Positions 22,078 to 58,103 of a stretch of DNA of 64,000 nucleotides are shown here, in pieces (within the stretch, counting starts at the first letter, position 1; every line of letters begins with the position of its first letter). The notes under the pieces are model-generated. The model was given only the letters and a program-made list of their open reading frames with translations. It did no database searches and had not been told where the DNA came from. The position numbers were made by a program, and so were the translations under genes. The DNA comes from Octopus vulgaris (lineage: Eukaryota): positions 14,756,001 through 14,820,000 of the forward strand of contig OX597821.1 of NCBI GenBank assembly GCA_951406725.2. The letters run 5' to 3'.

Positions 22078-22134
22078 TATTTGCATATAGATATATATTG
22101 GTTTTTAAATTGGGGTACTTGTTTGTATTTTTTT

Positions 22135-22277
22135 CTTTACTAGCTTCAGCTTGAGAGTTGCGGCCATACTGGGAGATAACTGACAGTGCCTAGGTTTCCC
22201 AAACGGTCACCCATCTAAGTACTAACTAGGCTCGAAGTTTCTTAACTCCGGTGCTCAGACGAGATTTGGCTGTAAGC
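22135..22277 (-). mobile_element. 5S rRNA-derived retroposon (SINE3-like) with CR1/L2-type tail, copy 1
   Basis: Minus strand GCTTACAGCCA..ATCTCGTCTGAGCACCGGAGTTAAGAAACTTCGAGCCTAGTTAGTACTTAGATGGGTGACCGTTTGGGAAACCTAGGCACTGT is 5S rRNA-like (A and C boxes recognisable), followed by CCCAGTATGGCCGCAACTCTCAAGCTGAAGCTAGTAAAG. Confidence 0.75.
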
Positions 22278-22892
22278 TATATATATTAATAAAAGCTGTA
22301 TATATTAATAGAAAAAATAATAATTCTCTTACTTTAAGAATTCTGAATAATAAATTGCAAAAGATGAAAATAAATCAAATAGTGTTGTCACAGAAATGAT
22401 AAAATCGCAGGTTAAAAGGTTTGAGGTTTTCGTTTATGTCTCTTTACATTCTGAGTTCAAATACTTAGTATCTTGTTTTTGCCTTTCATCATTTCGGTTT
22501 CAATAAAGTAAATATCAGAAATATATTGGGACTAGATTCTGTTGGCTACCTCCAGCTTTAAGAAACTTGTGATCGTATGGGAAGTTAGAAATTATGACTT
22601 CTAGAAATTTAAAATTCATAATTTTTAATTTAGGATCAAGGCCATCAGTTTTGTGCAGTGGAGGTTCGTTGATTAGATCGTCTTCAGTATTTGTTTTATT
22701 GGCTCTGGAAGGACGAAGGGTAAAGCTGACCTCGGCAGGATATTAAATCAGAACGCAAAGATAGTGAAAGCGAGCGAAAGATTAATAAAGGTTGAGAGTG
22801 AGAGAGAGATAGAGCTAAAGCAAGAGAGAGAAAGCGAAAGAAAAGAGAGAGAGAGAGAGAGGAAGAGAGTTAGAGAAAGAGAGAGAGAAAGC

Positions 22893-39408: not shown

Positions 39409-43340
<3,932 letters not shown>

Positions 43341-57647: not shown

Positions 57648-57894
57648 AATATGAAGTAGATGTCATCATCATCATCATCATCATCACCATCATCAATTTG
57701 TTTTCCCATGTTGTGAAGATTTCAAGAAGTTTACCATAGAAATATAATTGATCATGGATTTACAACCACTTGCTGGGCTATTTTACCAGTGGCCTACGTC
57801 AAGAGAATATGAATGAATGAGAGAGGTGTCATAAAAACATATTATTTACAGGATGAAATGTATACATTGTACATACCCTCACAGACATACAAAT

Positions 57895-58064
57895 TTTCTT
57901 GTTTTAGCTTAAGGGTTGCAGCTATGCTGGGGTACTGTACTGCTAATAAAAGTGAGATGTTAACAGTACCTAGGTCACCCATCCAACTGCTAATTAGGCT
58001 TGGCATTGCTTAACTTCAGTGATCAAATGTGGACTGGTGCATTCAATGCAATATGACTGTAAGC
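57895..58064 (-). mobile_element. 5S rRNA-derived retroposon (SINE3-like) with CR1/L2-type tail, copy 2
   Basis: Minus strand GCTTACAGTCATATTGCATTGAATGCACCAGTCCACATTTGATCACTGAAGTTAAGCAATGCCAAGCCTAATTAGCAGTTGGATGGGTGACCTAGGTACTGT (CpG-decayed 5S-like), then GTACCCCAGCATAGCTGCAACCCTTAAGCTAAAACAAG. Confidence 0.7.
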
Positions 58065-58103
58065 TATATATATATATTAGTGACAATTGATATATATATA
58101 TAT

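Follow-up and report, generated by a model that had tools for sequence, protein, structure and literature searches.

Two decayed 5S rRNA-headed retroposons of Octopus vulgaris very probably belong to a large set of independent chimeric retrocopies

Two stretches in a window of 64,000 nucleotides of the Octopus vulgaris genome (GenBank assembly GCA_951406725.2, contig OX597821.1, positions 14,756,001 to 14,820,000 of the forward strand) read as 5S rRNA that continues into a tail of different origin. Are these copies members of a SINE3 family, as the original prediction had put in its title, or did they arise as recurrent chimeras of 5S rRNA and LINE sequence, which it gave as the alternative? 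We find it highly probable that the two copies belong to hundreds of independent chimeric 5S retrocopies that likely arose by template jumping onto nascent RNA polymerase III (Pol III) RNAs.

Both stretches match the Rfam model RF00001 over model positions 1-120 and score above its gathering score of 38; copy 1 lies at window positions 22178-22277 (-) with 51.9 bits and copy 2 at 57958-58064 (-) with 67.1 bits. This confirms that both are 5S rRNA. The original prediction had located both 5S parts, but its 3' limits were 4-5 nt too short when compared to the RF00001 match. The 5S start, the A-box-like and C-box-like words and the upstream TA run that it quoted can all be read in both copies, and a tail that is not 5S is seen behind the 5S part of each. 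Both copies have a 5S-derived head with internal promoter boxes, based on RF00001 and the sequence. The internal deletions differ, as had been described, and none is common to the two copies. Aligned to a 5S gene from the array of this genome, copy 1 is identical at 85/99 positions (86%) with a deletion of 19 nt near its 5' end (between 22265 and 22264), and copy 2 is identical at 82/107 positions (77%) with a deletion of 12 nt in its 3' part (between 57975 and 57974). With a divergence of 14-23%, the two copies are old and dead, and likely functionless.

In copy 1, the alignment to the younger chimeras L017 and L064 suggests a remnant of the pre-5S trailer at 22174..22177 (-), which is followed by a decayed LINE-type 3' tail with an A-rich end at 22128..22173 (-; alignment and motif match at 22173). 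Judging from this alignment, the remaining trailer and the first tail bases were probably lost in a deletion of about 19 nt. In copy 2, the region at 57944..57957 (-) contains an older-type pre-5S trailer with a four-T run and then a 4-nt linker (alignment to L064 and trailer classes). Its decayed LINE-type 3' tail at 57894..57943 (-; motif match at 57931) begins at the usual hairpin foot and includes an internal duplication of 5 nt. The TA run at the 5' junction spans 22278..22286 (-) in copy 1, where it is target sequence outside the element, and 58065..58077 (-) in copy 2. No target-site duplication was visible by eye at either copy. The tail of both copies is a decayed form of a tail that is matched 18 times in the window (15-nt motif, at most 3 mismatches). 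A related insert at 40156..40238 (-; motif matches at 40230 and 40204) consists of the LINE tail alone, partly repeated and without 5S, and sits inside a TA microsatellite. Directly upstream of the insert, the 5S start or the 5' junction is partly repeated over a short stretch at window 22287-22310 and at the loci L060, L071, L073 and L206. Rfam matches to microRNAs in the window were rejected as microsatellite noise below their own cut-offs.

The 5' part of copy 1 (22207-22210 to 22700, deletion included) was recovered in a single contig in each of four public runs, and these contigs carry four organism labels and differ by 1-2 letters. Because of this recovery in one contig in four runs, we conclude that copy 1 is no assembly artefact. 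The Poisson chance of two copies in 64 kb is 2e-4 at 929 copies and 6e-3 at 5000 copies, and a window with two copies is expected in some of the roughly 44,000 windows of the genome. A profile search for old copies found 0 in 182 kb that were not chosen for 5S and 1 extra 5S piece in 383 kb of 5S loci. Thus, the pair in the window is not typical and a high density of old copies is rejected.

Genome-wide, the exact 22-mer of the 5S 3' end occurs 224 times in the 2.8-Gb assembly and an inner 5S 27-mer with up to 2 mismatches occurs 929 times, array genes at C4 included; the reversed control found 0 in both cases. For an unbiased set of 87 dispersed copies, we took the first 100 listed places of the 22-mer minus 3 in the array, 7 already sampled and 3 not retrieved. 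A recognised retroposon start lies 5-24 nt past 5S position 117 and on the same strand in 77 of these 87 copies, compared to a background of 0.9-1.2% at that distance and 0/115 in antisense. Among the other ten copies, nine begin a repeat within 14 nt according to BLAST, where two rest on a single match, and the remaining one (L036) continues into a TA array. The full tally of partners includes 115 loci, one of them counted twice (114 copies). The partner is the tail only at 42 loci, the head of SINE a at 38 and the head of SINE b at 11; rarer partners are the heads of SINE c (4) and SINE d (1) and six tails that we take to be RTE-like, and 13 loci are unclassified. The SINE partners are full-length and come from several families; SINE a to d are labels coined in this analysis, and these elements may correspond to OR1, OR2 and OK, which Ohshima and Okada 1994 described from octopus. 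In a second sample based on the inner 27-mer, which contained 12 known and 18 new loci, a partner was recognised by eye in 17 of the 18 new ones. The 5S part is near full length, with 81/114 copies starting within 5 nt of the 5S start, and a TA run lies upstream of 5S in 17/114 copies compared to 4% in the background. These samples favour young copies.

Several loci deviate from the simple layout. At L024 and L066, the 5' part of SINE c is joined at the same place to a tail of the SINE-a type, possibly a hybrid SINE subfamily, and L024 consists of three parts (5S, SINE c and tail). L079 and L036 have a common upstream flank whose last letters agree with the beginning of 5S, and the downstream flank of L079 is an inverted copy of its upstream flank. 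The 5S gene cluster itself (C4:35.20-35.34 Mb; L030, L118-L120, L261, L280, L281) contains units of about 0.5 kb and about 5 kb in both orientations and with many trailer variants.

The LINE origin that had been assigned to the tail holds, as the element whose 3' end forms the tail encodes APE endonuclease and reverse transcriptase domains. At 9 of 30 sampled tail loci, the tail runs on into the 3' UTR and ORF2. Longer copies of this LINE are about 95% alike; they encode the domains Exo_endo_phos_2 and RVT_1 and also contain the last part of an upstream ORF. The partner is thus a young LINE with two ORFs, of which ORF1 is seen as its last ~90 codons and named by position, and with a short 3' UTR that ends in short repeats. 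From its motifs, we presume that it belongs to the CR1 group. The best named homologue of ORF2 comes from Argonauta hians (61-62%) and the structural matches to L1 and R2 are remote (E about 1e-15); no LINE clade was obtained from these matches or from the names of homologues, which were unnamed or 'hypothetical'. SINE a ends in a related tail, and the fold is similar in four tail types and consists of two adjacent hairpins.

The partners begin at defined positions. At 21 of the 30 tail loci, two of which form one inverted pair, the insert ends from 4 nt inside to 6 nt before the first hairpin. Extra LINE sequence was found in 0/23 chimeras of 5S or U6 with tail A compared to 9/27 other inserts (Fisher p about 0.002); for a related tail, L078 is an exception by eye that carries more LINE. 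The SINE heads that are joined to 5S begin where unjoined heads do, with the same A at position -1. We infer two kinds of template end, a natural and a trimmed one. Microhomology between the AT-rich leader and TA-rich targets could add to the hot spot of plain inserts, but it leaves the tails with C-rich leaders unexplained. Most sampled inserts of the young LINE tail (L121-L150, and 40156-40238 (-) in the window) are tail-only pieces of about 50 nt, often in TA microsatellites. Beside inserts at L134, L125/L126 and L245, inverted LINE tail pieces lie tail-to-tail or head-to-head. A self-cleaving ribozyme of the HDV or hammerhead type was rejected for the tail, as spacing and core letters misfit by eye, and Rfam gave no ribozyme match across 11 tail loci. 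Two supplement files of PMC4824008 gave no match to a tail motif.

The linkers between 5S and partner are informative about the RNA that was captured. The 5S array genes have several short trailers before the T-run, and the linker matches such a trailer over at least 8 nt, counting the last 2 nt of 5S, in 22/114 copies compared to 1.3 in shuffles (maximum 6). A four-T run is present in 35/101 linkers and nine linkers are A-rich, some with scattered G. Tailing of small RNAs can involve mixed A and G. The T-run and A-rich linkers would be terminator and oligo-A decay ends, respectively, and the four-T runs are expected to stop Pol III. A second trailer type, which is the commonest in the sample, is found on older copies (5.1% compared to 2.5% private divergence, p 1.7e-6). 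None of its 7 exact matches is an array gene and all are dispersed chimeras; a pair of matches on C11 was considered as an array and rejected since it is a duplicated chimera. The second trailer type probably records a 5S gene type that has been replaced; alternatively, it may come from an unassembled or diverged array. Copy 2 of the window carries this older type, and copy 1 keeps its first letters only.

Other small RNAs are found in the same position. For U6, 19/23 dispersed copies are joined to the same partners as 5S. In two cases (L170 and L174), a second U6 lies directly behind the first, which repeated jumps would be expected to produce. At L132:1556-1668 (-), an intron-bearing pre-tRNA with 3' trailer and T-run is joined to the LINE tail. 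With chimeras of U6 and of a pre-tRNA, the capture is therefore not specific to 5S. L142, L145 and L136 have GC-richer or tRNA-like stretches directly 5' of the tail, two of them ending in T-runs; these gave no Rfam match at gathering score and may be other captured small RNAs. A tandem U6 array at C1:139.42 Mb (L160-L166) has a spacing of about 1.1-1.4 kb, and its variant 5' sequence recurs in dispersed U6 chimeras.

Did the 5S part and its partner enter the genome together? Duplications of 10-16 nt enclose the whole unit, from directly before 5S to directly after the SINE end, in 6/11 SINE-b chimeras and at L038. Overall, whole-unit duplications were found at 8/35 scored loci compared to 1.7 in shuffles (maximum 5), although one of the eight (L083) is spurious, and a duplication of the partner only was found at 1/35, where it is not at the element end. 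At L045, a 5S and SINE-b chimera lies inside another SINE-b copy with a 13-nt duplication. For the tail and SINE-a partners, the class to which the window copies belong, duplications of at least 8 nt are not above chance (5/71 loci compared to a shuffle mean of 1.9 and a maximum of 7; 8 loci with no tail located were left out). The L2 chimeras in the parts of PMC4476161 that we cite have short duplications, and our result for tail and SINE-a partners is in line with this but no proof. No empty site was seen at the young locus L017 in four runs, and all flank contigs that reach the site enter the element. In summary, 5S and partner were inserted as one event where the partners have long duplications, and they presumably were for the window-type tail.

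One chimera is present twice. L183:1490-2075 (+) at C3:39.775 Mb and L184 (-) at C19:43.681 Mb are the same chimera of 5S and SINE b, with two common changes in 5S and a common 16-nt linker (one difference) without a four-T run. The likeness starts at the 5S start, and each copy has its own duplication of 15-16 nt. A search with the junction pattern and 1 mismatch finds these two loci and no third copy; the diagnostic 5S variant is found at 3 loci, the third with another trailer. The simplest reading is that one chimera was read through and copied again, and hence is a nascent SINE3. The two copies are 89% alike over the unit, yet the 5S part has only 2 changes and the SINE part is more diverged, and the number of internal SINE-b repeats differs. 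The excess divergence of the SINE part is not accounted for by re-copying alone.

In the mechanism that we propose, the reverse transcriptase of the LINE would copy the RNA of a LINE tail or SINE, the observed 3' part, reach the 5' end of this template and jump to an unprocessed 5S RNA at its free 3' end. The partners start at an ordinary SINE 5' end or 0-5 nt before the first tail hairpin; these starts would be RNA 5' ends, where the end at the hairpin foot may be trimmed to a protein-bound structure of about 50 nt. The 5S part is in sense, near full length and followed by a trailer, a T-run or A-rich letters, which suggests capture of a Pol III transcript that was nascent or in decay, with no base-pair homology involved. 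Both parts would enter together, as is seen for the partners with long duplications and assumed for the window-type tail. Nearly all chimeras are single, and the one that is present twice may have been transcribed from the internal promoter of 5S and copied again.

The original prediction had proposed the junctions as a test, where a common junction would indicate a SINE3 family and variable junctions chimeric retrocopies. The junctions are variable: we found 100 distinct combinations of linker and partner among 101 classified copies, with at least seven kinds of partner, which supports its alternative of 5S-LINE chimeras and not the SINE3 family of its title. Two rare non-CpG changes in 5S are common to only 2 pairs among 114 copies, and the linkers of these pairs differ. 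For neither window copy was a relative with the same deletion or junction found among the 40 scored of 1203 and 162 candidates, respectively, in DNA searches. Among these 40 scored matches for each copy, the best non-self match covers 85 nt of 5S at 92% for copy 1 and 92 nt at 82% for copy 2, and the few full-length matches are 71-76% identical. Furthermore, an exact 32-mer of the tail has 2771 copies, mostly without 5S, and among the 30 sampled tail loci 5S precedes the tail at none, U6 at one and a pre-tRNA at one. The criterion of Kojima 2015 for independent chimeras is a tail that is widespread without the head (PMC4494074), and this is thus what we find. One could still read the window copies as old members of a true SINE3 family, in which one master with 5S head and LINE tail spread and then died: the two copies have one layout, trailers that open with identical letters and tails with two similar G-to-A changes, and 42/115 sampled copies are 5S plus tail, which looks like a family at first sight. 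Because our samples are biased towards young copies and the window copies are 14-23% diverged, an old decayed family keeps some room. Nevertheless, with nearly all junctions distinct, at least four tail types, no close relative of either copy among the scored matches and many tails without 5S as in the criterion of PMC4494074, we regard such a family as very unlikely.

The order of events could also be reversed, with 5S pseudogenes formed first and retroposons inserted later into the T-rich trailer behind them. The partner elements do prefer T/A-rich sites, and Tx1 families that target 5S are known (PMC4494074). However, the duplications enclose 5S and partner and not the partner alone, dispersed copies without a partner are rare, the orientation is always identical and several unrelated machineries would need one target, while the C4 array genes examined are uninterrupted by these partners; we hardly give any credence to later insertion. 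Less easily set aside is that the hybrids were first made as RNA by ligation of the RtcB type, as in human U6/L1, and then reverse transcribed. An endonuclease that cuts at the hairpin foot and leaves a 5'-OH could produce the fixed donor end, and U6 chimeras with the same partners do exist. Yet at 38/115 loci the partner begins at the usual 5' end of SINE a and is preceded by the -1 A that unjoined copies also have, the 5S parts end in trailers, T-runs or A-rich tails, and the linkers contain extra letters. Such SINE-a and 5S ends are presumably a triphosphate and a 3'-OH, respectively. Ligation has been demonstrated for human U6/L1, where it is strongly reduced if U6 carries a 3'-OH or the partner a 5' triphosphate, according to the sections of PMC6789731 that we use. 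On these grounds we think ligation unlikely. DNA alone gives the same picture for jumping and ligation, and we prefer template jumping over RtcB ligation because of the natural SINE 5' ends and the trailer or tail at the 5S ends. End-to-end jumping by R2 was reportedly described by Bibillo and Eickbush in 2004.

If template jumping is taken further, a wider scenario can be tentatively drawn, for which we see a real but less than even chance. LINE and SINE RNAs would be cut to a mini-template of about 50 nt with two hairpins, the form in which the LINE tail is most often inserted. From the end of this mini-template, the reverse transcriptase would routinely jump to U- or A-tailed Pol III precursors. 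The genome would thus hold hundreds of datable, independent attempts at a 5S-headed SINE, with an extinct 5S gene type in the trailers and one attempt caught after its first re-copying.

The birth of SINEs is usually inferred from finished families, and the octopus genome offers raw intermediates in countable form. These are 5S-headed hybrids in the hundreds, of which almost every one was dead from the start and a single one reached two copies. What makes a hybrid a family thus becomes testable, for instance a linker without T-run. The fixed donor end hints at a minimal RNA element that is recognised by a stringent LINE protein, and the trailers date the turnover of 5S genes. The process itself is already known from vertebrate U6 chimeras.

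In the literature searched (including the accessible parts of PMC8967140, PMC11481361 and PMC10294476, and outside subscription papers and repeat databases), we found no octopus SINE3 or set of 5S chimeras. This literature also gave no precedent for sense, near-full-length pre-5S at such a scale, for a fixed donor end at the foot of a tail with two hairpins, or for one chimera present twice with its own duplications.

The closest known case, as far as the parts consulted go, are the U6/L2 and U6/Mon-1 chimeras of platypus, which were described together with the U6/L1, L2, RTEX and AnolisSINE2 chimeras of anole (Doucet et al. 2015, PMC4476161). As in octopus, a small Pol III RNA precedes a SINE or a short LINE end, the LINE is stringent, duplications are short or absent and several LINE clades are involved per genome; in platypus, 40/47 U6 copies are joined to a repeat (PMC4476161). 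These chimeras differ in that they involve only U6, in vertebrates, with U6 mostly 5'-truncated, and the main text is without the phrase '5S rRNA', whereas octopus has near-full-length 5S with precursor trailer, hundreds of copies and a fixed donor end. Human 5S/LINE-1 chimeras (Law and Burns 2025, 10.1101/2025.02.02.635956) are likewise one inserted unit with duplications; however, in the portion of that work used here, they are often in antisense, with truncations at positions 46 and 90, whereas the octopus copies are in sense (antisense 0/115) with 3' end and trailer intact. In RtcB-ligated U6/L1 RNA (Moldovan et al. 2019, PMC6789731), a full-length small RNA with T-run also precedes a retroposon. 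There, a cyclic phosphate and a 5'-OH are required and the L1 junctions are variable, whereas in octopus the donor ends have fixed positions, many of them at natural SINE starts.

The crocodilian SINEU-2 5' extensions, ascribed to a template jump (Kojima 2015, PMC4494074), are similar in the repeated and independent addition of small RNAs to full-length SINE 5' ends. They differ, in the excerpts available to us, in having U1/SINEU heads on one SINE family, whereas octopus has 5S, U6 and pre-tRNA on many partners. Lastly, the SINE3 families SINE3-1 of zebrafish, AmnSINE1, OS-SINE1 and HaSE3 have a 5S head before a LINE tail or a tRNA-headed SINE, as judged from parts of PMC4824008, PMC4758252 and PMC10886601, and the layout of L183/L184, with 5S added 5' of a tRNA-headed SINE, is that of some of these families. 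SINE3 families have masters and one junction, whereas the octopus chimeras each have their own junction and include a single re-copied unit with two copies.
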